DNA of 64,000 bases from Nitrospirota bacterium (GCA_963796285.1 CAWCKW010000013.1:128001-192000), one strand, 5' to 3'; shown: positions 1 to 29,766, counted from the first letter of the stretch. Notes: generated by a model not told the origin, from the letters alone. A program made the numbers and translations.

Positions 1-286
1 TGATCAGCAGGAGTTCGAGCACCATCCGCCGCGCCTCAATGAGCGCCGGGCTTGTCGTTCTGACGACCATATTATCAGTGGCCGGCGTGGTGCAGGACGG
101 CGTGAACTTGCGGGGGGTTCCCTCCACCTCAACCAGGCAGATCCTGCAGGCGCCGAAGGGATGCAATTTATTGTCCTGGCACAAGGTCGGCACCCGTGAT
201 CCCGCCGCGTTAGCAGCGTCAAGGATGGTGGACCCGTGGGGCACCTCGACCTTCTTTCCATCAACCGTAACCGTCATTTTCAACAT
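1..286 (-). CDS. NuoG/HydA/FdhA-like Fe-S subunit, N-terminal [2Fe-2S] domain (partial, runs off window)
   Basis: Not in the ORF track. Manual translation from ATG at 286: MLKMTVTVDGKKVEVPHGSTILDAANAAGSRVPTLCQDNKLHPFGACRICLVEVEGTPRKFTPSCTTPATDNMVVRT...ARRMVLELLLI. The PTLC / GACRxCLV / SC pattern is typical of this family, and it follows the NuoF-like gene. Confidence 0.85.
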   Translation of the reverse strand, partial: MLKMTVTVDGKKVEVPHGSTILDAANAAGSRVPTLCQDNKLHPFGACRICLVEVEGTPRKFTPSCTTPATDNMVVRTTSPALIEARRMVLELLLI

Positions 287-307
287 AGTTTTTACCTTAA
301 ACCTTTT

Positions 308-381
308 TACCACAGAGATCACAGAGATTTGAACCTGACGTGTCAAATCTTTCCTGTTTCTTCTCTGCGTCCTCTGTGGTG
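308..381. repeat. Palindromic element with 9-nt-unit arms
   Basis: Left arm accacagag-atcacagag; right arm ctctgcgtc-ctctgtggt. Fills the gap between the NuoF-like and NuoG-like genes. Confidence 0.7.
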
Positions 382-393
382 AAGATTTTATTC

Positions 394-2187
394 TTAATCG
401 ATCGACCAGAACCTGCATGCCTTGATGCAGGATTTGCACTTCGTGCACTTTTCCGGATCGATATAGGCTACCTGTCCCTTTTCCCAAATAAGCGCCCCGG
501 TCGGGCAGGCCTTAAAGCACTGACCGCATTTCTTACACTTGTCCTTGTCCACCACGAACTTGACGAGGGGAGTACAGACCCTGGCCGGACAGCGGTGCTC
601 CTTGATGTGCGCCTCGTATTCGTCGCGGAAATACTTTATCGTGGTGAGCACCGGGTTGGGCGACGTCTGGCCCAGGCCGCAGAGCGAGGTGTCTTTGATC
701 TGCTGCGAAAGCTCGAGCAGGAGCTCGATATCGCCCTCGCGGCCTTCGCCGTTCGTGATGCGCTGCAGAATGGTAAGAAGCGTTTTGTTGCCGATGCGGC
801 AGGGAACGCACTTGCCGCAGGACTCGTCTTCCGTGAACTCGAGAAAGAACTTTGCCATGGCCGGCATGCAGGTCGTTTCATCCATCACCACCATGCCGCC
901 GGAACCCATGATCGCGCCGGTTTTGTTGATATTCTCGAAGTCCACGGGCGTGTCGATCAGGGTATGAGGGATACAGCCGCCCGAAGGTCCTCCCATCTGC
1001 ACGGCCTTGAACTTTCGGTTGTTTTTGATTCCGCCGCCGATTTCAAAGATGATGGTCTTGAGCGGAGTGCCCATCGGCACCTCGACGAGGCCGATATTGT
1101 TAAGCGCGCCCGAGAGCGCGAACACCTTGGTCCCTTTGCTCTTTTCGGATCCGAGGCTCGAAAACCAGTCCGCGCCGTTCAGGATGATCGGCGGCACATT
1201 CGCAAAGGTCTCCACATTGTTCAGCACCGAGGGACGCATCCACAAGCCCTTGACCGCGGGAAACGGCGGTTTGGCCCGGGGCATGCCGCGCTTGCCCTCG
1301 ATGGACGCCATGAGGGCCGTCTCCTCGCCGCACACGAAAGCGCCCGCCCCCTGATAGATCTCGATATCGAGGTCGAACCCCGTGCCGAGGATATCGTTGC
1401 CCAGCAGCCCGTTCTCCTTGGCCTGATCAATGGCTATCTGGAGACGGTGCACGGCAAGCGGATACTCCGCGCGCACATAGATATAGCCATAGTGGGCGTT
1501 GATGCCTTTGGCCGCGATGATCATTCCCTCGAGCACCGAGTGGGGATCCGCCTCCATGACACTCCGGTCCATGAATGCGCCGGGGTCGCCCTCGTCGCCG
1601 TTGCACAGAATATACTTGATATCGCCCTGTACCCGGGCGCAAAGCTCCCACTTGAGGCCCGTGAGGAACCCGGCGCCGCCGCGTCCGCGCAGTCCCGAAC
1701 TCTTCACCGTGCTCACGATCTGCTCGGGCGTCATTTCGGTCAGCGCTTTGGCTGCGGCCATGTAGCCGTCGCGGGCAATATACTCCTCGATCTTCTCCGC
1801 ATCAATGAGACTCCGATTGCGAAGCGCCCGCAGCACCTGGTGCTTGAAGAACGGGATATCGTTCATCACGGGGATCGTGTTTTTCGCCGCTGGCGGCGTG
1901 TAGAGGAACTTCTCGACCGGCCTCCCCTTGATGAAGTGCTCCTCCACGAGGAACGACACATCCTCGGGCTTCACCAGCTGGTAGAAGATGTCCTCGGGGT
2001 ATACCACCATGACCGGGCCCTTGGCGCAGAATCCGTTGCACCCCGTCAGCACGATCTTGACCTCGTTCTGGAGGTTACGCTTGATGAGCTCGGTCTCGAG
2101 GGCGTCCTTGACCTTGAGCGATCCGTTCGCCACGCAACCCGTACCGGCGCAGATCATTATGTTAGAACGGTATGTCGTCGTTTCCAC
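394..2187 (-). CDS. nuoF: NADH-binding flavoprotein subunit, NuoF/HydB/HndC-type (extra N-terminal [2Fe-2S] and C-terminal 2x[4Fe-4S])
   Basis: SGLRGRGGAGF, NGDEGDPGAFMDR, GAGAFVCGEETAL, GGPSGG, ESCGKCVPCR, SLCGLG. N-terminal CAGTGC...GCNGFC; C-terminal CKKCGQC...CP and CTKCKSC...C. Confidence 0.95.
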   Translation of the reverse strand: METTTYRSNIMICAGTGCVANGSLKVKDALETELIKRNLQNEVKIVLTGCNGFCAKGPVMVVYPEDIFYQLVKPEDVSFLVEEHFIKGRPVEKFLYTPPAAKNTIPVMNDIPFFKHQVLRALRNRSLIDAEKIEEYIARDGYMAAAKALTEMTPEQIVSTVKSSGLRGRGGAGFLTGLKWELCARVQGDIKYILCNGDEGDPGAFMDRSVMEADPHSVLEGMIIAAKGINAHYGYIYVRAEYPLAVHRLQIAIDQAKENGLLGNDILGTGFDLDIEIYQGAGAFVCGEETALMASIEGKRGMPRAKPPFPAVKGLWMRPSVLNNVETFANVPPIILNGADWFSSLGSEKSKGTKVFALSGALNNIGLVEVPMGTPLKTIIFEIGGGIKNNRKFKAVQMGGPSGGCIPHTLIDTPVDFENINKTGAIMGSGGMVVMDETTCMPAMAKFFLEFTEDESCGKCVPCRIGNKTLLTILQRITNGEGREGDIELLLELSQQIKDTSLCGLGQTSPNPVLTTIKYFRDEYEAHIKEHRCPARVCTPLVKFVVDKDKCKKCGQCFKACPTGALIWEKGQVAYIDPEKCTKCKSCIKACRFWSID

Positions 2188-2208
2188 GGTTATTTACTCC
2201 GTAAATAT

Positions 2209-2302
2209 ATTGGAAATTGAAGATTGGAAATTTTAAATTTTAAAGAAGAACATACTGTTTTTTAATCTACAATATTCAATCTACAATTTCCAATTTTCAA
2301 TT
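2209..2302. repeat. Palindromic element with 7-nt-unit arms
   Basis: Left attggaa-attgaag-attggaa-attttaa-attttaa; right aatctac-aatattc-aatctac-aatttcc-aattttc. AT-rich, inside a GC-rich operon. Confidence 0.75.
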
Positions 2303-2306
2303 CTTC

Positions 2307-2684
2307 TTAATACGTCGTCTCATGCCCGACAACCAGCGCGTACTCCGGCACCGGCTTGCCCCCTGCGATGTGTTCGGCAAAGATTTTTCGCATTTTCTCG
2401 TCCGTCAGCGAAATGTATTTCACCGGCGGCTCACCCGTGGTCTCGATGGTGGCCATGGGCTCCTTGCTGCAAAGGCCCGCGCAGCCTGATGTGGTGATCG
2501 CGACGTCCTTCAGGTTCGATTTGGCAAGCTCTTCCATGATCGTGTTCATGATTCCCCTGGCGCCCGCGGCGATCCCGCAGGTCCCCATGTGCACCGTGAC
2601 CCTGACGCGGAACCCACCCTCGCGAAGTCCCTGGTGGTAATCTTCCTTGATCTTCTTTAAATCAGCGATCGTGAGTTTGGCCAT
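2307..2684 (-). CDS. Thioredoxin-like (2Fe-2S) ferredoxin, HndB/HydD-like subunit
   Basis: VHMGTCGIAAGA...SGCAGLCSKEP; lies between the NuoE-like and NuoF-like genes as hndB does. Confidence 0.9.
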   Translation of the reverse strand: MAKLTIADLKKIKEDYHQGLREGGFRVRVTVHMGTCGIAAGARGIMNTIMEELAKSNLKDVAITTSGCAGLCSKEPMATIETTGEPPVKYISLTDEKMRKIFAEHIAGGKPVPEYALVVGHETTY

Positions 2685-2769
2685 AGTTCATCACTCCGTG
2701 AATTGTAAGATACGACATGACACCGGCTGGTGCGTGTGTATTTTGCGCTTTGTAATTTGCGTTGTGGTC

Positions 2770-3279
2770 CTACTCATACTTCTTGACAATGTCCATCACC
2801 TTCGTGGCGGCAACATCTCCGTAGGTGTCCTGGCCGATAACGACGACCGGCGCGAGACCGCACGCGCCAAGGCACCTCACGGCCTCGAGGGAATACCTCT
2901 TGTCCCGCGTTACTTCGCCGACCTCCAGATCGAGTTCGTCCTTGATCTTATTGAGGATCTCCTCGCTCCGTTTCACATAGCAGGCCGTGCCGAGACAGAC
3001 CCGGATCACGTGCTTGCCGCGCGGCACGAGCGTGAAGAACGAGTAAAAGGTCGCGACGCCGTAGACCACGCTCGGCGACATATTGAGACCCCGGGCAACG
3101 TATCGCTGCACCGCAGGGGGGAGATAACCGCATACTTCCTGTGCCTGCTGGAGCACGGGGATGAGAGAACCGGGTTTGTCCTTATACTTAGCGACGATCG
3201 CGTCGATCCTCAGGAACATGGCCGGCGTTATGACCTCATTGTTTGTCGCAGTCTGCTGTGCAACCGCTTCGCTACTCAT
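2770..3279 (-). CDS. nuoE: NuoE/HydC/HndA [2Fe-2S] subunit
   Basis: LIPVLQQAQ...GYLP, GVATFYSFF, VCLGTACYV, RCLGACGLAP. Confidence 0.93.
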   Translation of the reverse strand: MSSEAVAQQTATNNEVITPAMFLRIDAIVAKYKDKPGSLIPVLQQAQEVCGYLPPAVQRYVARGLNMSPSVVYGVATFYSFFTLVPRGKHVIRVCLGTACYVKRSEEILNKIKDELDLEVGEVTRDKRYSLEAVRCLGACGLAPVVVIGQDTYGDVAATKVMDIVKKYE

Positions 3280-3305
3280 CGTTTACCTCTTGGCAATGTG
3301 AAATG

Positions 3306-3842
3306 TCACTCTTCAAACCGGGTCTGCTCCCTGAACATGCCCCTGATCGCATCAAGCACCGCCGGAGCATTGATCGGCACCTCTTCAAGGTCGTTTTTGA
3401 TCTCCCGTGTGTCGAGCCGGAAGACCCTGTCGCCCTCCCGTGCCTCATACACAACATCAAGATCGGGGTGTCCAGCGATCAGAGTGAGCACCGTATCTGC
3501 CATGCTGCCGATCGCCGGCCGGTCCACATGGCTCCATCGAAAAATTACTGCGACCTTTGTTCCCTTGCCCGGAGCGGAATCCACGGTTACCTTCCCGCCT
3601 GCCTGCTCCGCCGCCTGGGACAGGAGCGGTATCCCCAGTCCCGTCTTTTTGTGTTTGGTGGTGAAAAAAGGGTCCCGGACCTTTGCAAGCGTCTCGGCAT
3701 CCATCCCCCTGCCGTCGTCAATCACTTCAACGCGGATACGGTCGTGCTCCACGTCCCTTGTGATAATGATCGATATCGTCTTCGCATCAGCGCGGACCGC
3801 GTTCTCGGCTATATCAAGGATATGCAGCGAGATATCTTCCAC
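3306..3842 (-). CDS. Stand-alone histidine-kinase-like ATPase (HATPase_c)
   Basis: Likely GTG start (MEDISLHILDIAENAVRADA). Has N box, DDGRGM, DPFFTTK, GLGIP and GKGT motifs, with no sensor or obvious HisKA domain. Confidence 0.85.
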   Translation of the reverse strand: MEDISLHILDIAENAVRADAKTISIIITRDVEHDRIRVEVIDDGRGMDAETLAKVRDPFFTTKHKKTGLGIPLLSQAAEQAGGKVTVDSAPGKGTKVAVIFRWSHVDRPAIGSMADTVLTLIAGHPDLDVVYEAREGDRVFRLDTREIKNDLEEVPINAPAVLDAIRGMFREQTRFEE

Positions 3843-3846
3843 GGCC

Positions 3847-4593
3847 TCAGCAGACCGCCTTCCTGCCGTCTCTGCCTGCCAGCGCTTTTTTGATCTCCGC
3901 CACGTTCCCGTCTTCGATCGTAAAGCACATGGTCCGTTTTCCGATGTCGCCGAGACCGTGAGCATCGGAACTGGTGATGATCGGATACTTCCCGCAGTCA
4001 GGGAACCGGATTGCCGCCTCGACCGCGGTCATATGCGCTGAGACCTCAAGGGCATCAAGAGCAAGCTGAGGCGGGACAAAGCCAAGCTGTCCAATGATGC
4101 TGAACGACTCTCGGTCCACATGCGCCGCGATCACCAGGCTTGCACCTTGTGCCGCGCGCGCCGCTTCAACGATTGCCGCGGCCGGCAGCGAGGTTGCCCC
4201 GATCAATAGCCGGTCGCAGAATCCGGTCACCCCGTCTTCGTCATCAGCGATCACCTGCTGGCCGAAGGCATGCTCATCATTCGTGCCCTGCTGGTGGCGG
4301 TAAATAAACCCCTGGAATTTCAGGAGATCGTCATCGTCATCAAAGAACACCAGGATGTGCGCTTCCTCGGAAGAGGTGACTTCCATCCCGCCCAGCACCA
4401 TCAGCCCGTTCCGCAAGCCCGCCTTTTTCACCGCAAGGACGTTTTCCGCCGAGTTGTGGTCACAAATACCGATCAGATCAAGGCCCTTCCCGAGGGCCGC
4501 ACTCACAACTTCACGGGGCGACATGTCCAGACCGGAGCACGGAGACAGGCAGGTATGCACATGCAGATCCGCCTTAATCCGCCTCAGCGCCAT
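3847..4593 (-). CDS. PHP-family metal-dependent phosphoesterase
   Basis: DLHVHTCLSPC, ICDHNS, GMEV, AHVDR, SSDAH motifs. Confidence 0.9.
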   Translation of the reverse strand: MALRRIKADLHVHTCLSPCSGLDMSPREVVSAALGKGLDLIGICDHNSAENVLAVKKAGLRNGLMVLGGMEVTSSEEAHILVFFDDDDDLLKFQGFIYRHQQGTNDEHAFGQQVIADDEDGVTGFCDRLLIGATSLPAAAIVEAARAAQGASLVIAAHVDRESFSIIGQLGFVPPQLALDALEVSAHMTAVEAAIRFPDCGKYPIITSSDAHGLGDIGKRTMCFTIEDGNVAEIKKALAGRDGRKAVC

Positions 4594-4924
4594 GGATCCC
4601 TGCCTTGTATAATCTACCAACCAGCTCAAATGCCGACAGACTGCTCACCAGGACTGGGATGCCCTCTTCCTCAGCCTTGGCAATGGTGTCCTTTTCGGGC
4701 TGCCGTCCCTGGACCAGGATAATGCCCGCCAAGTCCTTGTGCGACGCCACTGCCACGATATTCTGATGAATGTGGAGCGTTACCCAGAGAGTCCCCTCGT
4801 CTGCATGGGCCAGGACATCCGACAGGAGGTCGCTCACGTAACCGCTGCTCACCTCACGGTCAAGGTTTTTGGCGCCGGTTTTTACTTCCAGATCGAATTC
4901 CTTTACAAGGTCACTCAAGGTCAT
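4574..4924 (-). CDS. DRTGG-domain protein (HPr kinase N-terminal-like)
   Basis: GYVSDLLSDVL...LWVT...NIVAVA...GIILVQGRQP...AEEEGIPVL. Confidence 0.85.
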   Translation of the reverse strand: MTLSDLVKEFDLEVKTGAKNLDREVSSGYVSDLLSDVLAHADEGTLWVTLHIHQNIVAVASHKDLAGIILVQGRQPEKDTIAKAEEEGIPVLVSSLSAFELVGRLYKAGIHGAEAD

Positions 4925-4937
4925 AATGGGTTCCCGA

Positions 4938-5891
4938 TCAGCTCGTATAATAGAACTGCATGGTCAGATGCGTTCCGTCGGGCACCGACGATCTCAGGTC
5001 CATCTCATCGGCGCATTTCTTTATGTTCACCAGCCCCATGCCTGCACCGAACCCCAGTTCCCGCACCCAGTCGGGGGCAGTGGAGTATCCCGGCTGCATG
5101 GCACGCTCGACGTCCGGGATTCCAGGACCATTGTCTGTCACTTCCACAATGATTCCCCACTTTTCCACCTGGGCCCGTATCACACCGCCCTTGGTGTACG
5201 AGGCAAGGTTGATCTCGGCCTCATAGGTGGCCACCCCGATTCGCCTGAGGAGCGGGGGACAGACACCCAGTTTTTTGAGTGCGTTCTTGAGCTCGCTCGC
5301 TGCCTTGCCTGCCTCCTTCAAAGTTTGGCCCGCAACGTTGAACTTGAAAATGAAGCTGACCTCGTCAGCGGTTACGTCCTCAAAGAACTTCCGCATCGTG
5401 GGCCGATGACGCGCCAAGGCAGCCTTCGACTCGGTCTGTTCGTATTCGATCTCAAGCTTCCTGAGCAGTCCTTCGACGATGCTCCCCTTTGTAATGATGC
5501 CGACCAGCTCTTCCTGACGATTCAATACGGGGTATCGCTTAAACCCGTATTTGGAAAACTTCGCGATACAGTGAACGAGCAGTTCGTCGGCGTACAGGCA
5601 CTCAACCTTCGTCTTCATCTTGTCCCGGATGAGGGCGTTGATGTCATTATTACTGAGGGCATTGATCAGGTCCGCTATGCTGACCATGCCAACAAGCTTC
5701 CCGTTCTCGACGACCGGCGTTCCGGAGATGCGGTTGGCCTTCAGGAGGATACTGAGCTCAGACATGGTCTGGTCCGGCCTTACGGTAACGACCGTGGCGG
5801 ACATGACCTCGCCGACCGTGATCTCATAGACCATCTCCTGGGTCTTGGTCACCCGGTCCGTCGCTGCCTGCTCTTTTTCTTGTTGTTCCAT
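4938..5891 (-). CDS. CBS-pair + RsbT/anti-sigma-type Ser/Thr kinase fusion
   Basis: N-terminal tandem CBS (ISGTPVV, KRYPVL...VGIITKG). C-terminal IGVATYEAEIN, DNGPGIPDVERAMQPGYST, GFGAGMGLVNIKKCAD. Confidence 0.9.
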   Translation of the reverse strand: MEQQEKEQAATDRVTKTQEMVYEITVGEVMSATVVTVRPDQTMSELSILLKANRISGTPVVENGKLVGMVSIADLINALSNNDINALIRDKMKTKVECLYADELLVHCIAKFSKYGFKRYPVLNRQEELVGIITKGSIVEGLLRKLEIEYEQTESKAALARHRPTMRKFFEDVTADEVSFIFKFNVAGQTLKEAGKAASELKNALKKLGVCPPLLRRIGVATYEAEINLASYTKGGVIRAQVEKWGIIVEVTDNGPGIPDVERAMQPGYSTAPDWVRELGFGAGMGLVNIKKCADEMDLRSSVPDGTHLTMQFYYTS

Positions 5892-5895
5892 CCGT

Positions 5896-6252
5896 CTAAT
5901 GCCGCTCGGCCACTCCTCTAAGTCCTTTCAAGTACAGTATGCCGCAGGCCTCGAACATCGTGAGCTTCGTCACGAACAGGGGGATGTCCTTCTGTTTTGC
6001 CAGCGCCACAGTGTCAGCATCCGGCTGCTTGCCGCGCACGACGCAGACCGCCTGGATATCAGCGATGTCGGCCGTCCGTACCGCCTGGGGGTTGGTGAGT
6101 CCCGTGATCAGAATGCCGTTTGCGTGAGTGCGGCCGAGCACGTCGCTCATGAGGTCGGCGCTGAAGCAGTGCTCCACCTCGATCTCATCGATAAGGCCGT
6201 TCCCGGCAAGGACCTGCGCGCCCAAGAGATTCACAATCTCTCTCAAATTCAT
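5896..6252 (-). CDS. DRTGG-domain protein
   Basis: MNLREIVNLL...FSADLMSDVL...LITGLTNPQAVRTADIAD...VRGKQP. Confidence 0.85.
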   Translation of the reverse strand: MNLREIVNLLGAQVLAGNGLIDEIEVEHCFSADLMSDVLGRTHANGILITGLTNPQAVRTADIADIQAVCVVRGKQPDADTVALAKQKDIPLFVTKLTMFEACGILYLKGLRGVAERH

Positions 6253-6268
6253 CCGGCAACCCTCTCCT

Positions 6269-7463
6269 CTATCGGTCACACTCGCCGAGCACGATATCGA
6301 TCGTGCCGATGCAGGCGATAACATCCGCCATCATATGTCCGGTCACCATCTTCGGAAGGGCGCTCACATGCACATACGATGGCGCGCGGATCTTGATGCG
6401 GTACGGCCTGCCGCTGCCGTCGCTCACGATATAAAACCCGAGCTCGCCCTTCGGCGCTTCGGTGGCCACGTAGACTTCGCCCTTGGGCATGGGGACCCAC
6501 TTGCTCATGTACACGAACTGGTGCGCAAGGGACTGCATGTTCTGCATAACCTGTCGTCTTCTCCGGCATGGCGTAGCGCGGGTCATCGGTCGTGATGGGC
6601 CCCGGCTGCATCATGTCCAGACATTGTTTGATGATACGGTTGCTTTGGCGCATCTCGTTGATGCGCACGATGTACCGGTCGTACACGTCCCCGTTCTTCC
6701 CGAGCGGGACATCGAACTCCACCTTGTCATACGCAGCATAGGGCTCTACCTTGCGCAGGTCGTAGTTCACTCCCGAGCCGCGGAGCGTGCCGCCGGTCAG
6801 ACCGTAGTTGACCGCGTCCTCGGCCGAGAACACGCCGATACCCACTGTCCGCTTGAGCCAGATCCGGTTCTCCCGGATAAGCGTATCGTAATCCTCGAGC
6901 CGCTTGGGGAACACTTCGGTGAACTCGCGGCACTTATCGATAAAATCGCGCGGCACGTCGTTCCGCAGACCGCCGATGCGGACATAACTTACGGTCTGTC
7001 GCGCTCCCGTCACCATCTCCGTCAGATCGAGGATGAGTTCCCGTTCCCGCAGCGTGTACATGCAGACCGTCATGGCGCCGATATCAAGGGCGTGGGTACC
7101 GAGCCACACTAGGTGCCCGGAAAGCCTCGTGAGCTCGGCCATCAGCGTCCTGATGAACTGCGCCCGCTCCGGCACGGTGATGCCGGCGAGCTTCTCCACG
7201 GCCACGACGTAGCCCAGGTTGTTGTTCATGCAGGTGATATATTCCAGCCGGTCCGTCATGGGGATGATCTGGTGGTAGGTGCGGCTCTCCATCCACTTTT
7301 CGATCCCGCGGTGAAGATACCCGGGACGCGGGTCACAGCCCACCACGGTCTCGCCCTGCAGATCGAGCACCAGGCGCAGCACGCCGTGGGTGGCCGGATG
7401 CTGGGGACCCATGTTGAGGGTAATTTCTTTTTGCACTATCTCTTTAGTCTCGGTAACGGACAT
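6269..7463 (-). CDS. nuoD: NADH-quinone oxidoreductase subunit D (one frameshift near 6558)
   Basis: [26 protein letters not shown]. The C-terminus in the second frame is EAPKGELG...[10 protein letters not shown]...DIVLGECDR. No Ni-binding CxxC motifs. Confidence 0.95.
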
Positions 7464-7476
7464 ATGTTCACCATGT

Positions 7477-7573
7477 AATGTCAAATGTCAAAACCCAAAG
7501 TTCAATTCAAACTTCAAACAGCAAGGCCACATGTTAAAATATTTTGACCTTTGAATTTTAAACTTTGAATTTT
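7477..7573. repeat. Palindromic element with 7-nt-unit arms
   Basis: Left aatgtca-aatgtca-aaaccca-aagttca; right ttttgac-ctttgaa-ttttaaa-ctttgaa. Between nuoC and nuoD. Confidence 0.7.
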
Positions 7574-7575
7574 CT

Positions 7576-8046
7576 TCAGTAGCCTTTCAGCGGATATTCC
7601 TTCCGGAGAGGATACCCTTCCCAGTCCTCGGGCAGGAGGATCCTGCGGAGGTCCGGATGACCGTCGAATTTTATTCCCATAAGGTCATAGGTCTCTCGCT
7701 CATGCCAGTTCGCTGTATGCCAGATCGCGGAGACCGTGTCTATTCGCGGGTCCTCTTCCGGTACTCTGACCTTCAAGCGAATACGATGGTGGAATGTGAT
7801 CGAGATCATATTGTACACGACCTCGAACCGCGGTCCGCTGTCGCCGGGGTAAGTTGAAAAATCGACTGCCGTAAGATCGGCCAGATGGTCCATCCTGACC
7901 AACGGTTCGTCGCGGAGGTAGAGGCAGATGTCCCGGATCATGTCCTTTTTGAGGGACACTCCCACCTGCCCCGCATGGGTCGTCGTGCCGAGTACCTGGC
8001 CGGGAAAGTTTTCTTCTATCATTTTGGCGATCTGCAAGGGGTCCAT
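7576..8046 (-). CDS. nuoC: NADH-quinone oxidoreductase subunit C
   Basis: RFEVVYN, ANWHERETYDLMGIKFDGHPDLRRILLPEDWEGYPLRKEYP. Confidence 0.95.
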   Translation of the reverse strand: MDPLQIAKMIEENFPGQVLGTTTHAGQVGVSLKKDMIRDICLYLRDEPLVRMDHLADLTAVDFSTYPGDSGPRFEVVYNMISITFHHRIRLKVRVPEEDPRIDTVSAIWHTANWHERETYDLMGIKFDGHPDLRRILLPEDWEGYPLRKEYPLKGY

Positions 8047-8167
8047 ACAACCTCGTATCGTACTGATCTCTACCCAAGGCTCCGGGGCAAAGCGGCCTGG
8101 TATTCGGAGTCTCTGTGGCCTGCTGCAGGAGATTGGGTATCGTCTGTGTTGATCTTGTGTGCAGGAT

Positions 8168-8647
8168 CTACTTCCGGATGTAATGCTCAGCTCTGATCTT
8201 TTCCTGAAGCTTCATGATGCCGAACATGAGGGCCTCCGGCCGCGGCGGACAGCCGGGGATATACACGTCTACCGGGACAATATTATCTACCCCCTGGACC
8301 ACGCTGTAGGTGTTGAAGATCCCGCCGGAACCGGCGCAACTGCCCATGGCAATGACATACCGCGGCTCTGGCATCTGGTCGTACACACGGCGCACGATCG
8401 GGGCCATCTTTTTAGTCAAGGTTCCGGCGACGAGCAGAAGGTCTGACTGCCTTGGTGACGGTCGAGGCACCGTGCCGAACCGGTCGAAATCATGCTGCGG
8501 AGCGGAGTAGTACTGGATCATCTCGATGGCGCAGCATGCGAGACCGAACGTCATGGGCCAGATGGAGTAGGAACGCGCAAGGTTTAAAAGCTCATCGAGC
8601 TTCGTGGTGATGTACCCCTCTTCGAAGGCGTTCTGGATTATTCCCAT
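8168..8647 (-). CDS. nuoB: NADH-quinone oxidoreductase subunit B
   Basis: [44 protein letters not shown]. Confidence 0.96.
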
Positions 8648-9012
8648 TCAAGGGCCCCCTTCTTCCACGCATAAAGATACCCAACGAGCAGGATGGCGAT
8701 GAAGACCACCATTTCCACGAAACCGTACAGGCCAATGTAGTCATAGGCTACGGCCCAGGGATAGAGAAACACGGATTCGATGTCGAATATGAGGAACAGC
8801 ATGGCGATGATGTAGTAACGGATAGAGAACTTCTGATGGGCGTCCATGAAGGGCGTGATGCCGGACTCGTAGGTCAGCAGCTTTTCGGGATAGGGGTTCC
8901 GCGGCCGGAGGACCCAGCTGAAGACAAGCATCCCGATGCCGACGGCGGAGCCGAGCAGCAAAAAAACGATCACGGGCAGAAAGTGGTCCGGAAGATAGGT
9001 ACTTGGTGTCAT
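8638..9012 (-). CDS. nuoA: NADH-quinone oxidoreductase subunit A
   Basis: [34 protein letters not shown]. Confidence 0.96.
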
Positions 9013-9067
9013 ACACTAAACTCCCTGCTATTAAATTTTGGATTAGCAGAACTTCTAAAACGGGCTC

Positions 9068-9096
9068 ATGATAAGCCATGCAAAAAAATTTGTCAA
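9068..9096 (-). promoter_or_regulatory. sigma70-type promoter of the nuo operon
   Basis: Minus strand reads TTGACA-17 nt-TATCAT, ~55 nt upstream of the nuoA start. Confidence 0.7.
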
Positions 9097-9303
9097 GCAA
9101 AACATTTGCACAAAAAGTTGCTCGGTTCATACGAATCAAGTGTTGAGATTTCGCGGCCCGGGAAGCCCTTTCCCCTTGTTTTCAGGCGTTTGAAGCAGTA
9201 CAATAGCCTCCACTCGTGAGGTTCGCCAGAACCTATCCGCCTTCCCCCATGTTGCCCTTCACTCTTGAACAAGGAGATTTTTAATGTTACACATTAAACG
9301 TGA

Positions 9304-10702
9304 TCAAAGCTGTACAAAATAATTCGCCCATGCCCCGTCGATGACCTCTTTGGTCATTACCGGCGGGGTCTCACGGTATCTGGCTATATCGATGATCTGA
9401 TCTATGATGTCCCTCGGGTGGCAGGCATTCAGTTTGACACCTATTTTGTCATAGTGTTCCTTGAGCAGATAGTCAAGGACATCTTTTCTGAGTTCCAGCC
9501 CCTTCTGTTCAGCTACCCGATGGAATATCTGACAATATTCTTCCAAAGGAGGATGGTCTATCTTGATCTTGTACCTGATCCTCCTTAGAAAGGCCTCATC
9601 CACTAATTGCCTAGGCTCTATGTTGGTTGCAAATATAATGATCTCGTCAAATGGTACCTCAAACTTGTTTCCCGTATGAAGGGTGAGGAAATCCGTTCCT
9701 CTCTCTAGGGGCACGATCCAGCGGTTCAGGAGGTCTATGGGCTTCACCATCTGCCGCCCGAAGTCGTCAATGATAAAAATACCCCCATTTGCCTTCATCT
9801 GAAGTGGGGCCTCATAGTATTTGAACACCTCGTCGAAATCCAGGTCCAGGGTCTTTAACGTAAGTTCCCCTCCCACCATGATGATAGGTCGTTTGCACCG
9901 GACCCATCTGGCATCTCCATGGATTTCTTCCATGATAGGTTTGTGATTAACAGGATCAAAGACTTTTATCACCTGACGATCAACGATCACTGCATGGGGC
10001 ATGCAGACCTCGCCAGGTAAAAGGGAGCCAATGGCCTCTGCTATGGCGGTCTTTCCGTTTCCTGAAGGACCGTATAAAAAAATGGATTTGCCTGAGTTCA
10101 CCGCCGGGCCAAGCTGGTCAATGAGGGTCCCGCCGATGACGAGGTGGGAAAATGCCTTTTGTATGGCCCCTTCATTCACAAGTACGCTTTTTACAGACTG
10201 ATACTTCATCTGCTTGGAATAATCAGCAAGGGTGACAGGGGCTGCGCCAATATATTTACACATGTCAAGCGCCTCCTGTGCCCTTTTTCTTCCCAGCTCA
10301 GTTATGGAGAATTGATACGTAGTAGCTTCGTAACCGGTCCCTCCCTTTACTTCACACATCTTATTCTTTCTTAGGGACTGGACCGTCTGGTCCATAATGA
10401 GGATCGGGAGCTTGACCGCCTTGGCCAGGTCTTTCAGTGTAAAACTTCCCATGGAATAAATGTGCTTCAGGGTCAGATCGGATATGAATCCGGATCAAGG
10501 CCTGTTTCCTCCAGGGTTTTAGGTTCACGGGGGATATTTTTAAAAAAAGTAGTGAGCTTTTTCTCCTTTATCAAACCGAGGGCCACAAAGGTCTCACCGA
10601 GTCGTCATCTCCTTTACTTTTTTGCGTGTTCAGTGCCTTTTCAAGCTGCTCCGGAGTAACAAGCCCTTCATCGATCATCCTCTTACCAAGCACATATTCC
10701 AT
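9304..10702 (-). CDS. AAA+ ATPase with N-terminal MshEN-like domain (frameshifts in the 5' part)
   Basis: ORF 9304-10452 has GPSGNGKT and IIDDFGRQ. Upstream frames from ATG 10702 give MEYVLGKRMIDEGLVTPEQLEKALNTQ...RLGETFVALGLIKEKKL...PREPKTLEETGL. Confidence 0.8.
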
Positions 10703-20339: not shown

Positions 20340-21266
20340 CTACTGGGTAAACAACTTGTAAATAGCTATCGCCGCGGGGCCGAGGAGCACGATAAAGACG
20401 GCTGGAAAGATGCACAAGACCAGCGGGAACACCAACTTTATCGTCGTTTTTGCTGCCGCTTCCTCCGCGATCTGCCTCCTTTTCGTGCGCAGGCTCTCGG
20501 CAAAACCCTTCAAAGCTTGAGCAACGCTTGTGCCGAACTTCTCCGACTGGATCAGCATATCGGTCAATGCCTTTATATCATCCAATCCCGTCCTTCTGTG
20601 AAGGTTCCTAAGGGCGTCAATCCTCGGCAGTCCCACCATAATCTCGTTGACTATCTGCCTGATTTCCATGGAAAGGGGCGTCTTCTCAAGGATCTGTTCC
20701 TCGCTCACCTTCCGTAAGGCCGCGTCAAGCCCCAGGCCGGCCTCCACAATGATCGCAAGAAGGTCCAGAACATCCGGCATGTTATGGAATATCTCTTCCT
20801 GCCTCGTTCTTACCTTATAAGAAAGGTAGCCGTCGACCGCGAAGAAACCGATAAAGGCAAGAAGCGCTGTTATGATAACGCCTGTGGTAATGTCAACGAA
20901 TCTGAAACCGGTGAACACAAAGACCGCGGGCAGCGACACGGTCAAGAAGATTTTAAATCCGTAAAACGCTCTCGCGCTCCCTTTGCTTCTGAAGCCGGCC
21001 AGAACAAGGAGGTTACGATAGCGGGACACCCGCTTCTCTTGCGGGGCAGGGAACAGATCGGTCACGTACTTGATACTTTTCTTGAGAAATGGCAGGCTCT
21101 CTTTTTTTGTTCGTCGCTCCCGGGTGACTTTCATCTGCTCCAGACGATCGGCCATAACATTTGTCCTGGAGGGTAGTAGAAGCGCAACGGCCCAAATGAT
21201 CCCCACGATGCTGATAAACAATAATATTAAAGTAAGGAACATGCGGTCTCTCCCTGTTCTGTTCAT
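20340..21266 (-). CDS. tadC: Tad pilus platform protein TadC
   Basis: PDVLDLLAIIVEAGLGLDAAL, QSEKFGTSVAQAL, KLVFPLVLCIFPA. Confidence 0.93.
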   Translation of the reverse strand: MNRTGRDRMFLTLILLFISIVGIIWAVALLLPSRTNVMADRLEQMKVTRERRTKKESLPFLKKSIKYVTDLFPAPQEKRVSRYRNLLVLAGFRSKGSARAFYGFKIFLTVSLPAVFVFTGFRFVDITTGVIITALLAFIGFFAVDGYLSYKVRTRQEEIFHNMPDVLDLLAIIVEAGLGLDAALRKVSEEQILEKTPLSMEIRQIVNEIMVGLPRIDALRNLHRRTGLDDIKALTDMLIQSEKFGTSVAQALKGFAESLRTKRRQIAEEAAAKTTIKLVFPLVLCIFPAVFIVLLGPAAIAIYKLFTQ

Positions 21267-21296
21267 ACCCACCCGCCGGTGGATGGGAAGCACGGG

Positions 21297-22268
21297 TTAT
21301 ATCTTGATTCTTATTATCTTTCTTATAAACATGAAGCCTACGAACTGCAGGACCAATGCGCCGGCAATAAGATATTTGCCCGCCGTCTCCTTAAAAAGGA
21401 TGCTGATATAATCAGGATTCAGCACATGGATAACCACCACCAAAAAAATCGGGAGGGCACCCAGGATATATCCCGACAAACGTCCTTGCGCGGAAAATAC
21501 CCGCACCTGCCTCTTCAATTTCAGTCTTTCCTTGATAAGCAGGGAAAGGTTTTTCAAGATCTCCACCAGGTTGCCCCCGGTCACCCTCTGGATATTTACA
21601 GCCGTTACGAAGAACATCAAATCCATGCTATCAATCCGGTAAATCATCCGCCTCAGGGCGTCATAGTGGCTGAGACCCAAAGCCTGTTCGTCGATGGCTG
21701 TGTTAAAGATCGTACTAACGGGATCTGATGACTCCTGGGCCGCGTATTGCATCGCAGAGGTAAACGAGTGGCCTGCATCGAGCGATCTGGCAATAGTAGT
21801 AAGGGTGTCTGGAAACTGCTCCTCAAATTTTATGATCCTTTGCTGTTTGCGCCAATGAATATAGAAGTACGGCGTCGCGGCCAGAAAGAGGCACAAAGCA
21901 ATGGCGAAGAAAAGCCCTCTGTTGATCAGGATGCCGGCAAGTAAACCGGTCATGCCGATGGTAAGGGTGAGTAAGAGCAATTGCCCCACCTTTATTTGCA
22001 CGTTTGCCTGCTCAATAAGGACGGCGATTTTCTCCATGATCGGGATTTTATACAGTACTTTGTTCAGCGCGGGTATCTCGCTCAACAACTCATCACGCAG
22101 AAGCCCCGGCATTCTCATGCTGCCGGGGTGACTAACCTCCATATTCGCCAGCCTCGCCTTTATCACGGCCCTGGACGACTGCCTGAGTCCGCCGAGCATC
22201 AGATACAGTGAGATAATGCCTGATATAATTGCCATAAAAGCAAGAAGTACTATCAAAACGATATGCAT
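21297..22268 (-). CDS. tadB: Tad pilus platform protein TadB
   Basis: KFEEQFPDTL...SLDAGHSF, QRVTGGNLVEIL, SAQGRLSG. Confidence 0.93.
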   Translation of the reverse strand: MHIVLIVLLAFMAIISGIISLYLMLGGLRQSSRAVIKARLANMEVSHPGSMRMPGLLRDELLSEIPALNKVLYKIPIMEKIAVLIEQANVQIKVGQLLLLTLTIGMTGLLAGILINRGLFFAIALCLFLAATPYFYIHWRKQQRIIKFEEQFPDTLTTIARSLDAGHSFTSAMQYAAQESSDPVSTIFNTAIDEQALGLSHYDALRRMIYRIDSMDLMFFVTAVNIQRVTGGNLVEILKNLSLLIKERLKLKRQVRVFSAQGRLSGYILGALPIFLVVVIHVLNPDYISILFKETAGKYLIAGALVLQFVGFMFIRKIIRIKI

Positions 22269-22372
22269 GGGAACCTCATATATTACTTTTTCCGCTCTCC
22301 CTGAGAGAAGAAAGGCGGAATTTTTTGGTGACTACCGACTTTTTACGAGTTTATCAATTTTGACCTCGGCAG

Positions 22373-23740
22373 TTACAATATTGGCGTTATCTCGAAGGTT
22401 CTGGGAGAGAGATGCACCCCTGCCTGTTCCAATCTCTCTGCAAACTTGGGCCAGATCCCGTTCGCCTTGAACTGACCCAGGACCTTCCCGTCTTCATCGA
22501 CGCCGGATATACCGAAGTGGAAGATCTCCTGCATTGCTATGATGTCCCCCTCCATGCCTACTATCTCTGAAATACCGATGACCTTCCTGGTCCCATCGCT
22601 AAGCCTCGCAAGTTGTATCACGATGCTTATCGCCGAAGCGATCTGCTCCCGTATGGCCCTCTGCGGAAGGTCCATCCCTGCCATCAGCACCATGGTCTCC
22701 ACACGGGAGAGGGCGTCTCGCGGGCTGTTTGCGTGGACCGTGGTGATGGACCCGTCATGACCGGTATTCATGGCCTGCAACATGTCCAGTGCCTCTTCAC
22801 CCCTGACCTCGCCCACAATGATCCTGTCGGGCCTCATCCTGAGCGCGTTTTTAACGAGATTTCTCTGGGTTACCTCTCCCCTTCCCTCTATGTTGGGCGG
22901 CCTCGTCTCAAGCCTGACCACGTGATCCTGCTTAAGATGCAATTCCGCGGAGTCTTCAATGGTCACGACCCTCTCCCTGCCCGGGATGGACTCGGACAGG
23001 ACATTGAGCAAGGTTGTCTTGCCGCTTCCTGTCCCACCGGATATGATGATGTTGACCCTGGCCTTTACGGCGCCTTGCAGCACCTCGATCGCCTGGAGAT
23101 TCAGGCTCCCCAGGGCTAGAAGGTCAATCATCTTCAAATATTCCTTGCCGAACCGACGTATGGAAATAGCGGGGCCGTCCAGGGCAATGGGCGGTATGAT
23201 GGCGTTGACCCTCGACCCGTCGGGCAGCCGCGCGTCAACGTAAGGGGACGCCTCATCGATCCTCCTGCCGACCTTGGATATGATCCGGTCAATGATCTGC
23301 ATAAGGTGCGCGTCATTCCTGAACACAGTGTTCGTCTTTTCAAGCTTCCCGAACTTCTCTATGTATACCTGACCCGGGCCGTTCACGAGGATATCGGATA
23401 TGTCCATGTCGTGCAAGAGTGGTTCCAGCGGGCCGAGCCCCAGGGTTTCATGTAGAATCTCTATGAGCAGATGTTCCCTATCCGTCTCGCTCAAGGGGAC
23501 GCCCTCTTCTTTGATAAGGTCCTCGCTGATCAGCCTTATCTCCTCTTCGAGCTTGTCCCTTCCGATTTCGTTCAAGGCTGAAAGGTCCATCCTTTCCACC
23601 AGCTTACGGTGGATGTTTGCCTTCAGCTCCTGATAAGGGTCCAACTGGATGGACCGTCTCAAAATACTGGCGGCGTAACCCTGTTCCGGCCCGATGACTT
23701 CCGGCTTTTTAGTGCCCAACAGCCGATCTTTTAAACCCAT
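22373..23740 (-). CDS. cpaF: Tad pilus ATPase TadA/CpaF
   Basis: [41 protein letters not shown]. Confidence 0.96.
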
Positions 23741-23870
23741 GTATGTTCCTCCTCACCTTGTTTCCAAGGGGTGTAAAACAGAGAGTTCGTCCTGTTAGCT
23801 GATCAGAATAACTCATCCGAGAAATTAAATTTAATACAAACGAAATACTGATTGTTACATTTCGATGAGT

Positions 23871-23917
23871 CCCCCTCGCCCTACCCTCTCCTCTGGGGAG
23901 AGGGCAATGGTGAGGGG
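23871..23917. repeat. REP-like palindrome, CCCTCTCC...GGAGAGGG class
   Basis: ccccctcgccctaccctctcctctggggagagggcaatggtgagggg. Confidence 0.7.
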
Positions 23918-23940
23918 CATGAATGTATCAAATGTTAAAT

Positions 23941-25167
23941 TTAATCTTTTTGCAATAACCTCTTGAGCAAAGATTTTTTTTCTTCTTTTTTTTCCTTTTC
24001 TTCTGTTGAGCACTCAGCGTAAAACGTCTTGTTTATGCCCCTGACGATGTTCTCCATGCTTTTCGTTATATTGGACGATGGCACAAGGGTCACCAGCGGG
24101 ATGCCCCGGTTGATGGAGGTGACCACGTTCTGGTATTCGTTCGGGATCAGCCACGAGATTGGATATTGCAGCGTGTCCTGGGCATAATCCGCCTTGATGT
24201 CCTCGTTTGCCCCATACCTGTTTATAAGCAGCCGAACCTTGTCTTGTCCATAACCCAGGTCACGAAAAACCTGAAGGCTCTTCTGAATATTACGGATGGC
24301 AGGGAGGGTCAAAACCCCTACCAGCAATATCATGTCGGCAATATCCATGACGGTCAGGAACCGTTCATCAAAAGAATATCCTCCGTCCACAATGACATAA
24401 CCTCCCATTCCTTTCAGCAAGTGAAGAACCGATTTTATCTTCGGCGCGGTGATCTCTTCCACATCTGCGACATTCTTCGGCTCGGCAAGCACGTAAATGC
24501 CCGATTCATGCCGGCACATTGCGCCTTTTACGTAATTGGCGTCGATCCCGTTCACGTTTCGCGCGACATCCGCTATGGTATAGCTCGGTTTTATGTTGAG
24601 GAAGGTCGAGACGTCCCCGCCCTGCAGATCCAGGTCCACGATCATTACGGGTCTCTTTTTATCCCGCGCCATTAAGGCCGCCAGGTTCACCGCGACCGTG
24701 GTTTTGCCGTACCCGTCCTTGCTGCCCAAGACAGCGATTATCTTCCCCTCCTCCGCCCCGGCCAGAGGGGCTGACCTTCTAGACATGGCCTGCATGGTCA
24801 CCTTCTCGATGGCCCTCGCAAGTTCCTTCTTATTAATGGGTCTCAGCAGGTAATCATCGGCTCCCGCGCGCATCGCTTCAAGGATAATGTCAGAATCTTT
24901 TTGATCGCACGTAATAAAAACAGCGGTAAGAGGATATTTTTTCTTCACACCTGCAACAAAGGCCAGAATACTGGCTTTATCGGACAGCTTCATTTCCACA
25001 ATGACAAAAAGCGCAACAGTCGGCCTATACCGGGAAAGCATCGAGTCGCCCGTTTTCAAGTCCGATGCCTTCAAAATCTGTTCGATATCCATCTCCTTCA
25101 GATATCCCGCGATTATCTCCATAGACTCGGTTTCCCGGTCGATTATCAACGCTGACAGATGAGACAT
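23941..25167 (-). CDS. cpaE: Pilus assembly protein CpaE/TadZ (receiver-like + MinD-like)
   Basis: AMRAGADDYL, deviant P-loop GSKDGYGKTT, VDLDLQGGD, INRGIPL. Confidence 0.9.
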   Translation of the reverse strand: MSHLSALIIDRETESMEIIAGYLKEMDIEQILKASDLKTGDSMLSRYRPTVALFVIVEMKLSDKASILAFVAGVKKKYPLTAVFITCDQKDSDIILEAMRAGADDYLLRPINKKELARAIEKVTMQAMSRRSAPLAGAEEGKIIAVLGSKDGYGKTTVAVNLAALMARDKKRPVMIVDLDLQGGDVSTFLNIKPSYTIADVARNVNGIDANYVKGAMCRHESGIYVLAEPKNVADVEEITAPKIKSVLHLLKGMGGYVIVDGGYSFDERFLTVMDIADMILLVGVLTLPAIRNIQKSLQVFRDLGYGQDKVRLLINRYGANEDIKADYAQDTLQYPISWLIPNEYQNVVTSINRGIPLVTLVPSSNITKSMENIVRGINKTFYAECSTEEKEKKEEKKSLLKRLLQKD

Positions 25168-25303
25168 ATTTCCGAAGCTCCTTTTAAGTTCTTCCTAGCG
25201 TACCGAATTTGCTCGTTGAGCCCCACATGGGGGCCATCGAACTGTTCATGTCATTGCATCTTTTTTATCGGGTCCGCATTGCTTGACCCAGGCTACCGGC
25301 TTT

Positions 25304-26401: not shown

Positions 26402-26459
26402 GTTATATCCCTCCTTCTCGAAGAGAAGAGAGCGAGCAACCACAAAGGTTGTCCGTGCA

Positions 26460-28598: not shown

Positions 28599-28689
28599 GT
28601 CCCCCTTGATAAAAGTTCTGTTGTAGAGTTCAATTCAGATGATTTTACTACTCCAAACGATACGTTGCGGTCCTTGGTATAATAATATT

Positions 28690-29141: not shown

Positions 29142-29185
29142 GTCCGGCTCCGATATTAACTCGTCGTAGTGACCAAACAGCGTTG

Positions 29186-29701: not shown

Positions 29702-29766
29702 TGTCCGGACAGCACATTGCACCTGTTCCATGAGCTTGTTACATAGATCGTTTGTTAAGATATTCC

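Follow-up and report, generated by a model that had tools for sequence, protein, structure and literature searches.

Five small genes lie between nuoD and nuoE in a stretch of 64,000 nucleotides of DNA from a Nitrospirota bacterium (GCA_963796285.1, CAWCKW010000013.1:128001-192000), which is called the window here and is numbered from its first letter. Together with hndB/hydD, these genes may form a conserved accessory signaling module of Bfu-type NADH/ferredoxin flavin modules, built in this case into a predicted Nuo-Bfu complex I, a reading to which we assign a probability of about 45%. The same uncharacterized set accompanies one NADH/ferredoxin input module across phyla, which argues for a control device that is probably still undescribed. 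Among Bfu-type enzymes are [FeFe] and [NiFe] hydrogenases that bifurcate electrons, formate dehydrogenases, Nfn, and the predicted Nuo-Bfu; they are central to anaerobic energy conservation, and to our knowledge almost nothing is known of their regulation. The six-protein module offers a concrete candidate for this control, with candidate phospho-sites (Ser36 and Ser35), candidate ligands, and a possible contact between the HisK-like and HydD proteins, and the window provides a clean Nitrospirota example of a predicted Nuo-Bfu complex I. All the domain families, Nuo-Bfu as a prediction, and the 'hisK', 'hydD', and 'tte0891' genes of hyd operons were already known, the new element being a widespread, uncharacterized, partner-switch-like module devoid of STAS, PP2C, or sigma components. 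No description of the DRTGG/CBS-kinase/PHP set, or of a function for it, was found in the literature searched, which did not extend to the figures and supplements of PMC9304861. Also, the DRTGG literature searched holds nothing on hydrogenase or nuo operons, and no pertinent passage with 'kinase' or 'regulatory' occurs in a review of 2018 (PMC6288185).

Every gene of the region is carried by the minus strand, with nuoD and nuoE flanking the five cassette genes. A scan of the 15 open reading frames (ORFs) of positions 1-10500 against Pfam agrees with the original prediction in the coordinates and domain calls of this cassette. The cassette and the genes downstream of it are the following:

5896..6252, minus strand: DRTGG-1, 118 residues (Pfam DRTGG, PF07085, 27.9 bits, cut-off 25.2)
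4938..5891, minus strand: CBS pair joined to a SpoIIAB/RsbT-type GHKL kinase, 317 residues (two CBS, 85.5 bits; HATPase_c_2, 37.8 bits, Pfam cut-off 27.4)
4574..4924, minus strand: DRTGG-2, 116 residues (Pfam DRTGG, 27.8 bits, cut-off 25.2)
3847..4593, minus strand: PHP metal-dependent phosphoesterase, 248 residues (PHP, PF02811, 33.2 bits, cut-off 26.4)
3306..3842, minus strand: stand-alone HisK-like ATP-binding domain, 178 residues, GTG start (HATPase_c, 69.4 bits)
2770..3279, minus strand: NuoE/HydC/BfuC-like [2Fe-2S] subunit (2Fe-2S_thioredx, 174 bits; best match HoxE, below the equivalog cut-offs)
2307..2684, minus strand: HndB/HydD-like thioredoxin-like ferredoxin, 125 residues, probably a member of the accessory network (profile matches)
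394..2187, minus strand: NuoF of HydB/BfuB architecture, 597 residues (nuoF_fam, 501.8 bits, cut-off 558.65)
2..277, minus strand: N-terminus of NuoG/BfuA, first 91 codons, running off the window (profile matches)

Gene frames in this GC-rich DNA were chosen by hand. The DRTGG-1 ORF spans 5896-6324, its real start being the ATG at 6252, and the PHP ORF (3847-4629, 260 residues) has its likely start at the ATG at 4593. For the HisK-like ORF (3306-3965), the GTG start at 3842 is confirmed by homologs that begin with MEDLSLHILD. The genes are as tightly packed as had been claimed, with spacings of -20 to +26 nucleotides: 16 between nuoD and DRTGG-1, 4 between DRTGG-1 and the kinase, 13 between the kinase and DRTGG-2, -20 (an overlap) between DRTGG-2 and PHP, 4 between PHP and the HisK-like gene, and 26 between the latter and nuoE.

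Relatives of the cassette were collected through its kinase. Of 8000 candidates scored in a word-indexed search, 5246 proteins had E up to 1e-5, the 120 matches listed being each at least 79% identical. An exhaustive comparison with 50%-identity representatives retrieved 13201 proteins at E up to 1e-3, 1126 at E up to 1e-10, and 70 at E up to 1e-30. A kinase profile (A1), derived from an alignment of 38 full-length members, was scanned over one genome per species; at least 600 stretches matched, 599 were confirmed, and the best 80 loci were kept. Because these 80 are the best-scoring of at least 599, the proportions given below describe the relatives of this kinase and not all Bfu clusters. 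The six-frame ORFs of the 80 loci were searched with the window proteins by phmmer, presence being defined as E below 1e-8. Many of these loci are cut by contig ends, and a full-flank subset is made up of the 44 loci that have 6 kb or more to the left and to the right. For recurrent neighbors, 2678 unassigned ORFs were clustered and the families found in five or more loci were considered.

The full five-gene cassette is present in 50/80 loci, and its members and neighbors are frequent when counted singly (DRTGG1 65, DRTGG2 71, PHP 68, HisK-like 51, NuoE 54, HndB 53, and BfuB-type NuoF 55). The 44 full-flank loci contain DRTGG1 in 39 cases, DRTGG2 in 40, PHP in 39, the HisK-like gene in 32, and NuoF in 34. 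The hosts belong to Nitrospirota, Chloroflexota, Planctomycetota, Cloacimonadota, Acidobacteriota, Spirochaetota, Thermotogota, Kiritimatiellota, Bacteroidota, and others. A comparison of the HisK-like, NuoF, and HndB genes in the full-flank subset finds all three together in 32 loci, none of them in 10, NuoF and HndB without the HisK-like gene in 2, and the HisK-like gene without the other two in 0, HndB being present in 32/32 loci that have the HisK-like gene. Three gene orders recur. In one, the cassette is followed by NuoE, the HisK-like gene, HndB, NuoF, and BfuA, with the HisK-like gene between NuoE and HndB in 24 cases; in another (13 cases), NuoE, HndB, and NuoF precede a cassette that includes the HisK-like gene, with BfuA at the end; the third, that of the window (PHP, HisK-like, NuoE), is seen in 6 cases.

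The enzyme next to the cassette is variable. Among 14 neighboring BfuA-like proteins, 4 carry an [FeFe] H-cluster domain, which bears out the earlier statement that similar genes accompany hydABC-type clusters; 6 are NuoG-like (a Molybdopterin domain and no dinucleotide-binding domain), 2 are formate-dehydrogenase-like, 1 is an amidohydrolase fusion, and 1 is a polyferredoxin. Proteins of ~1100 residues with a Pyr_redox_2 domain are encoded in two further loci (L005 and L011). [NiFe] hydrogenase genes are also frequent neighbors, the small subunit in 20 loci and the large subunit in 19, followed by HycI (10 loci), MvhD (9), and HdrB/C-like genes (7-9), and the regulators that recur are a membrane histidine kinase (11), a response regulator (8), and a sigma-54 activator (5). 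The neighbor families present in five or more of the 80 loci include no sigma factor, STAS, PP2C, or DNA-binding family. The constant partner is the NuoE/HndB/NuoF set, next to a catalytic partner that may be [FeFe], [NiFe], Fdh-like, or Nuo. NuoD is nearby in just 6/80 loci, and the cassette tracks the Bfu-type flavin module and not complex I as such. Of the control of complex I or of its head, as first proposed, what is supported is that the cassette is embedded in a nuo operon in the window; elsewhere the cassette follows the Bfu module.

Some of these loci also hold other genes beside the cassette. One (L017, 16953-19082) encodes a protein that combines the [2Fe-2S] N-terminus of a BfuA-like protein with an amidohydrolase domain, and in another (L039, 181-2196) an amidohydrolase gene lies directly upstream of the cassette; this amidohydrolase may be a further, undescribed Bfu partner. 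In Treponema-type loci the kinase adjoins the [FeFe]-hydrogenase maturase HydF, and in 7 loci a HAD-family hydrolase lies ahead of the kinase (L054 11031-12263, and upstream of the kinase in L054 and L075).

The original prediction is to be corrected in that nuoE, nuoF, and nuoG of the window are of the HydC/HydB/BfuA (Bfu) type and not canonical NuoEFG. For example, the window NuoF has an N-terminal [2Fe-2S] thioredoxin-like domain, a core for flavin mononucleotide (FMN) and NADH, and a C-terminal 2x[4Fe-4S] domain. A 14-subunit 'Nuo-Bfu' has been predicted, with a BfuABC input module whose genes lie in the middle of the nuoA-N cluster (Schut et al. 2022, PMC9304861); it corresponds to BfuB clade 39, from Planctomycetes and Nitrospirae, and NADH and reduced ferredoxin are its proposed electron donors to menaquinone (PMC9304861). 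The window, with BfuB, BfuC, and BfuA genes among its nuo genes, is an instance of this predicted, uncharacterized complex. The likeness includes the mid-cluster position of the Bfu genes, the extra Fe-S domains of BfuB, closest relatives in Nitrospirota, and the nuoH-L genes of one of these relatives. On the other hand, the main text of PMC9304861 has no discussion of kinase, DRTGG, or PHP genes (the word 'kinase' occurs 0 times), and a legend in that paper merely draws regulatory or processing genes in plain text. The term 'Nuo-Bfu' was found in PMC9304861 alone within the literature searched.

A survey of genomes for the arrangement of the window, as the original prediction had called for, indicates that it is conserved. 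Two Nitrospirota loci from independent assemblies (L001 and L002) have the order nuoABCD, cassette, nuoE, hndB, nuoF, nuoG, the same as in the window, with proteins 66-94% identical to those of the window. In L002, the NuoG-like protein has Fer2_4, NADH-G_4Fe-4S_3, Fer4_Nqo3, and Molybdopterin domains, and downstream of nuoG are nuoH, nuoI, nuoJ, nuoK, and nuoL, several of them split by frameshifts. A variant order (DRTGG1, kinase, nuoABCD, DRTGG2, PHP, HisK-like, nuoE, hndB, nuoF, nuoG) is found in a Thermodesulfobacteriota locus (L039) and in a metagenome-assembled genome from Actinomycetes (L036). A quick maximum-likelihood tree of NuoF/BfuB, with 47 rows and with the omission of loci whose best NuoF ORF covers <80% of the query, L036 among them, places the window, L001, L002, and L039 in one clade with a Shimodaira-Hasegawa-like approximate likelihood ratio (SH-aLRT) support of 99. 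Elsewhere, a divergent nuoA-B-CD-E cluster adjoins the cassette (L016), and an Mrp/Mbh-like set, a SPOR protein, and a Rex-like regulator lie upstream of it (L065). The nuo embedding of the cassette is thus a conserved but minority context.

Domain fusions link the products of these genes to one another. A DRTGG1-type domain is found N-terminal to the kinase in longer homologs, with Pfam DRTGG in 3/9 proteins of that length class and a D/E-L-M/I-S-D-V/I-L motif in 4/5 sequences inspected. The kinase is also fused to a HydS-like Fe-S/degenerate [FeFe] domain (Fer4, as 2x[4Fe-4S], in 14/14 proteins, PF04060 in 13/14, and Fe_hyd_lg_C in 10/14), these fusions being of the HydDB 'group C1' type (PMC5037454, PMC11406978). 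Moreover, PHP is fused to the HisK-like domain in 10/13 longer homologs, and in one protein (P0279) the HisK-like domain is fused to an HndB-like domain (residues 199-310, 34% identity to the window HndB, E 1e-21). Fusions and co-occurrence together point to a six-protein network with two branches: DRTGG1 goes with the (CBS-)kinase, PHP goes with the HisK-like protein and HndB, and DRTGG2 is encoded between the branches. HndB/HydD had not been counted in the five-gene system first described; on this fusion and co-occurrence evidence, it probably belongs to it too.

The conserved residues of the kinase are those of an ATP-binding GHKL domain of the Bergerat fold, whose motifs are an N-box E-x-x-x-N, a G1 box D-x-G-x-G, and a glycine-rich G2 lid. 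The N-box (E224/E226/N228), the G1 box (D253/G255/G257), and the G2 box (G280-L287) are conserved in 79/79 kinase sequences. No equivalog-level match to an anti-sigma kinase is obtained, the scores being 48.8 bits for TIGR01925 spIIAB (cut-off 135) and 18.7 for RsbA_anti_sig (cut-off 210). The ATP-binding motifs of both ATPases of the cassette are intact and conserved, in support of the original prediction. In CBS pairs, the pattern G-h-h-S-x-x-D (also with T in place of S) is a ribose-phosphate binding pattern, and CBS site 1 retains it, with G68 in 79/79, S71 in 76/79, and D74 in 75/79 sequences.

The two DRTGG proteins are paralogs (hhalign probability 99.9%, 32% identity). In DRTGG-1, the motif D33-L-M-S36-D-V-L39 has D33, S36, and L39 in 59/59 sequences, and in DRTGG-2, Y29, D32, S35, T49, and N55 are present in 51/51, so that the shared serine motif noted at the outset holds across both families (D32 and S35 being its counterparts in DRTGG-2). 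The DRTGG profiles reach the insert of CBS-pyrophosphatase, the N-terminal domain of HPr kinase, and AF_1212, and searches of the PDB with single DRTGG sequences gave chance-level matches only. AF_1212, a generic DRTGG protein, has Gln at the position aligned with the motif serine, which makes the serine motif a specific feature of this cassette.

In the PHP protein, the metal-ligand motifs H-x-H, D-H-N, E, H, and D-x-H and the Cys of S-P-C are invariant, and the same columns are invariant in alignment A6; the ligands are H23, H25, D57, H58, E83, H170, D222, and H224 (numbering of the 260-residue ORF), all in 47/47 sequences. The PHP profile has 13 PDB matches at E up to 0.01, led by Endonuclease Q (E 1.4e-15), with a Bifidobacterium PHP phosphoesterase, RNase AM, TM0559, pAp phosphatase, and PolC among the other leading matches. 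In NCBIfam, the protein shows weak similarity to nucleoside bisphosphate phosphatase and RNase RNM. The HisK-like protein has D10, N14, D42, G44, G68, G70, G94, and D107 in 41/41 sequences, and the ATP-binding domain is followed by a C-terminal extension with a conserved S-H-x-D-R-x-P-x-G. By sequence, this extension has no counterpart among the solved structures, the PDB matches spanning profile positions 4-108. HATPase_c is the sole Pfam domain of the protein, with no HisKA domain, and the operon has no response regulator; a role as a two-component sensor histidine kinase was rejected on these grounds, the HisKA/DHp part and a response regulator in the operon being both missing.

The HndB family has just three conserved Cys positions (C36, C68, and C72), each in 46/53 sequences, and the HndB-like domain of P0279 lacks the cluster-binding cysteines. 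These two observations raise the question of whether HndB always binds [2Fe-2S].

From gene content, motifs, synteny, co-occurrence, and fusions we infer a ligand, a phosphotransfer, a direction of signaling, and a target. The CBS pair of the GHKL kinase would bind an adenosine-containing ligand (adenylates or a molecule like diadenosine tetraphosphate, Ap4A), and the kinase would act with both DRTGG paralogs, the invariant serine of D-L-M/L-S-D-V-L being the best candidate for a phospho-acceptor or contact site. The PHP phosphoesterase would reverse or degrade the signal. PHP would be physically coupled to the HisK-like ATPase and this one to HndB/HydD, and this second branch would tie the switch to the BfuBC core. 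The outcome would be a post-translational tuning of NADH and ferredoxin electron input by energy or redox state, a character that is supported indirectly because no DNA-binding partner recurs and because the cassette genes are interleaved with structural genes. A more specific version, which we hold to be rather doubtful, is that the CBS-gated GHKL kinase phosphorylates the DRTGG serine, that PHP, under the control of the HisK-like protein and the HydD ferredoxin, erases this mark, and that the phospho-state of DRTGG gates bifurcation/confurcation at BfuBC. If this version were true, the module would be a partner switch of a new sort that turns an entire family of anaerobic energy enzymes on or off after translation, the ferredoxin- and NADH-driven complex I included.

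Several observations weigh against the signaling module. CBS site 2 of the window kinase has Ser137 where 70/79 homologs have Asp. The PHP protein had been proposed as the phosphatase of the switch, and this is not supported: CpsB and YwqE are PHP-type protein phosphatases, and 0/13 PDB matches are of this type, the closest solved relatives being Endonuclease Q, RNase AM, and pAp phosphatase. The nearest solved relative of the DRTGG1 profile is the regulatory insert of CBS-pyrophosphatase (3l2b, E 1.6e-4), and kinship to a nucleotide-binding insert makes a co-sensor role of DRTGG as plausible as a substrate role. Moreover, the kinase is found without a Bfu module in 10/44 full-flank loci, mostly with DRTGG2 and PHP and most of them in Spirochaetota, and thus its primary target need not be a Bfu enzyme. 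The module could also report the state of the enzyme instead of controlling it. Finally, a continuous operon is assumed from gene spacing, and if the frameshift in nuoD described below is real, the operon may be in decay. A nucleotide messenger could be at work, in which CBS and DRTGG would bind an alarmone (Ap4A, pAp, a cyclic nucleotide, or another) that PHP hydrolyzes, PHP would not be a protein phosphatase, and the serine would be a ligand or contact site. The nearest relatives of PHP are indeed nucleic-acid and nucleotide phosphoesterases, and DRTGG is akin to the insert of the CBS-DRTGG-CBS pyrophosphatase, which responds to AMP, ADP, ATP, and diadenosine polyphosphates. We consider this distinctly unlikely, given that it leaves two ATP-using GHKL domains with intact catalytic motifs unexplained and that the serine is invariant in both paralogs but Gln in the generic DRTGG protein AF_1212.

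A role in maturation or assembly, in which the HisK-like protein, HndB/HydD, PHP, and DRTGG would help to fold the BfuBC core or to load cofactors (FMN, Fe-S, Zn) into it, appears unlikely to us. Chaperones do occur among GHKL ATPases, hisK and hydD are not in the purified holoenzyme (PMC9304861, Fig. 1 legend), cassette genes lie inside structural operons (the HisK-like gene between hydC and hydD in the 24 cases above), and the HisK-like and HndB genes are strictly associated with BfuB, in 32/34 NuoF-positive full-flank loci and never without it. Nonetheless, active HydABC-type enzymes have been made heterologously without the cassette, a CBS sensor on a SpoIIAB-type kinase and HydS-like sensory fusions are typical of signaling, and the trio of kinase, DRTGG2, and PHP is also found with no Bfu genes nearby. 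The Caldanaerobacter subterraneus hyd construct included tte0891 (PMC4694547). Under classical anti-sigma partner switching, the kinases would act on operon transcription by binding a sigma factor whose gene lies outside the cassette. In Pfam, SpoIIAB and RsbW make up the HATPase_c_2 family, the source annotations read 'anti-sigma regulatory factor', and the two-component or sigma-54 regulators counted above, as well as those of L002, lie near some loci. In spite of this, the spIIAB equivalog score is far from its cut-off, the cassette is interleaved with structural genes, and neither the window region nor the recurrent neighbors provide a sigma factor, STAS, or PP2C protein, in agreement with the earlier observation that sigma factor, STAS protein, and response regulator are absent (none in the 15 scanned ORFs of 1-10500); this makes it quite improbable. 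As for a hyd-type accessory cluster that came to lie beside nuoABCD by chance or through mis-assembly, the nuoD frameshift is at the edge of the junction region, and L002, which is the nearest long relative, belongs to an assembly rich in indels (nuoH, nuoI, and nuoJ are split). This explanation is hardly credible, being already contradicted by the gene order that L001 and L002, two assemblies independent of each other, share at protein identities of 66-94%, by the variant of L036 and L039 with nuoABCD inside the cassette, by the single clade of Nuo-linked BfuB proteins (SH-aLRT 99 in the quick tree), and by the publication of Nuo-Bfu as a class (PMC9304861).

Known systems resemble the proposed signaling module in part. 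The native hyd order of C. subterraneus is hydC-tte0891-hydD-hydB-hydA, with Tte0891 called 'hypothetical' (PMC4694547), and the hyd operons of Acetomicrobium mobile and Thermotoga maritima carry 'hisK' and 'hydD' (PMC9304861, Fig. 1 legend). This corresponds to the NuoE, HisK-like, HndB, NuoF arrangement of 24 of the surveyed loci, and by its operon position Tte0891 would be a homolog of the window HisK-like protein. In the window, however, the HisK-like gene is placed before nuoE, with complex I as its partner enzyme. With partner-switching modules (SpoIIAA/AB and RsbR-S-T-U-V-W), the cassette shares a HATPase_c_2 kinase, small partner genes adjoining it, and a dedicated phosphoesterase, and its second GHKL protein is coupled to the esterase as RsbT is to RsbU. 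It differs in the absence of STAS, PP2C, and a sigma factor, its partners being DRTGG proteins and its esterase a member of the PHP family. A comparison with the CBS-DRTGG-CBS insert of family II pyrophosphatase (PDB 3l2b, 3l31), which is regulated by adenine nucleotides, reveals the same combination of a CBS pair with DRTGG; nevertheless, the insert is part of a single polypeptide within an enzyme, whereas the DRTGG of the cassette is separate or fused to the kinase and has its own D-L-M-S-D-V-L motif. The sensory [FeFe]-hydrogenase systems HydS/HfsB (HydDB group C; PMC5037454, PMC5707799, PMC11406978) are similar in that fusions of this kinase subfamily to HydS-like Fe-S/[FeFe] domains exist. 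These fused kinases are 45-51% identical to the window kinase domain, and for the hfs operon (HfsB/HydS with a Ser/Thr kinase and a phosphatase) genetics indicate a regulatory role (PMC5707799). The sensor of the window is different, being a CBS pair instead of a hydrogenase-like domain.

The genes upstream of the cassette and their promoter are the following:

9068..9096, minus strand: sigma-70-like promoter TTGACA-17-TATCAT, upstream of nuoA (11/12 matches; called by consensus match)
8638..9012, minus strand: nuoA (Oxidored_q4, 132 bits)
8168..8647, minus strand: nuoB (Oxidored_q6, 101.5 bits)
7576..8046, minus strand: nuoC (Complex1_30kDa, 160.8 bits)
6269..7484, minus strand: nuoD, split by a 1-nucleotide insertion near 6550-6556 (Complex1_49kDa in two frames)

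The single clear sigma70 promoter claimed for the operon was recovered as the one strong promoter-like site, at 9096..9068. A scan for terminators gave 9 matches, and 9.2 were expected from shuffles; this chance-level count therefore holds no signal. For nuoD, positions 1-180 of the Complex1_49kDa profile match in the frame of ORF 6276-7484 and positions 174-271 in that of ORF 6269-6586, the last 93 codons being shifted to the other frame. L001 and L002 have an unbroken nuoD ORF, and compared with them the window has one extra base at 6545-6560, which is either an assembly indel or the mark of a pseudogene. The split nuoH, nuoI, and nuoJ of L002 suggest that assemblies in this group are prone to indels. 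An Rfam scan of positions 1-10500 at E up to 0.1 gave zero matches, and a PADLOC scan found no meaningful match in the cassette (PHP against Ppl, 17 bits).

The spacer between hndB and nuoF (2188-2306) is AT-rich and holds two inverted arrays of a 7-nucleotide ATTGGAA-like unit, with arms of 36 nucleotides each (2209-2244 and 2259-2294) that are 81% complementary. The pattern occurs 7 times (0.26 expected) and is absent from all 80 related loci. The predicted RNA fold of the spacer is -24.8 kcal/mol (z -3.25), and the spacer also contains two weak promoter-like matches. Directly upstream of the nuo promoter, positions 9304-10452 (minus strand) encode an AAA-type ATPase of 382 residues, which resembles the IetA/IteA anti-phage ATPase weakly and over part of the match only (33.6-35.8 bits, well short of the cut-off); at the same position L002 has genes for a PAS histidine kinase and for a sigma-54 response regulator. 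Finally, a Tad/Flp pilus set is encoded at 20340-29731 (minus strand), with two T2SSF proteins, T2SSE, a CpaE-like protein with a receiver domain, a TadG-like protein, a secretin, RcpC, and a prepilin peptidase.

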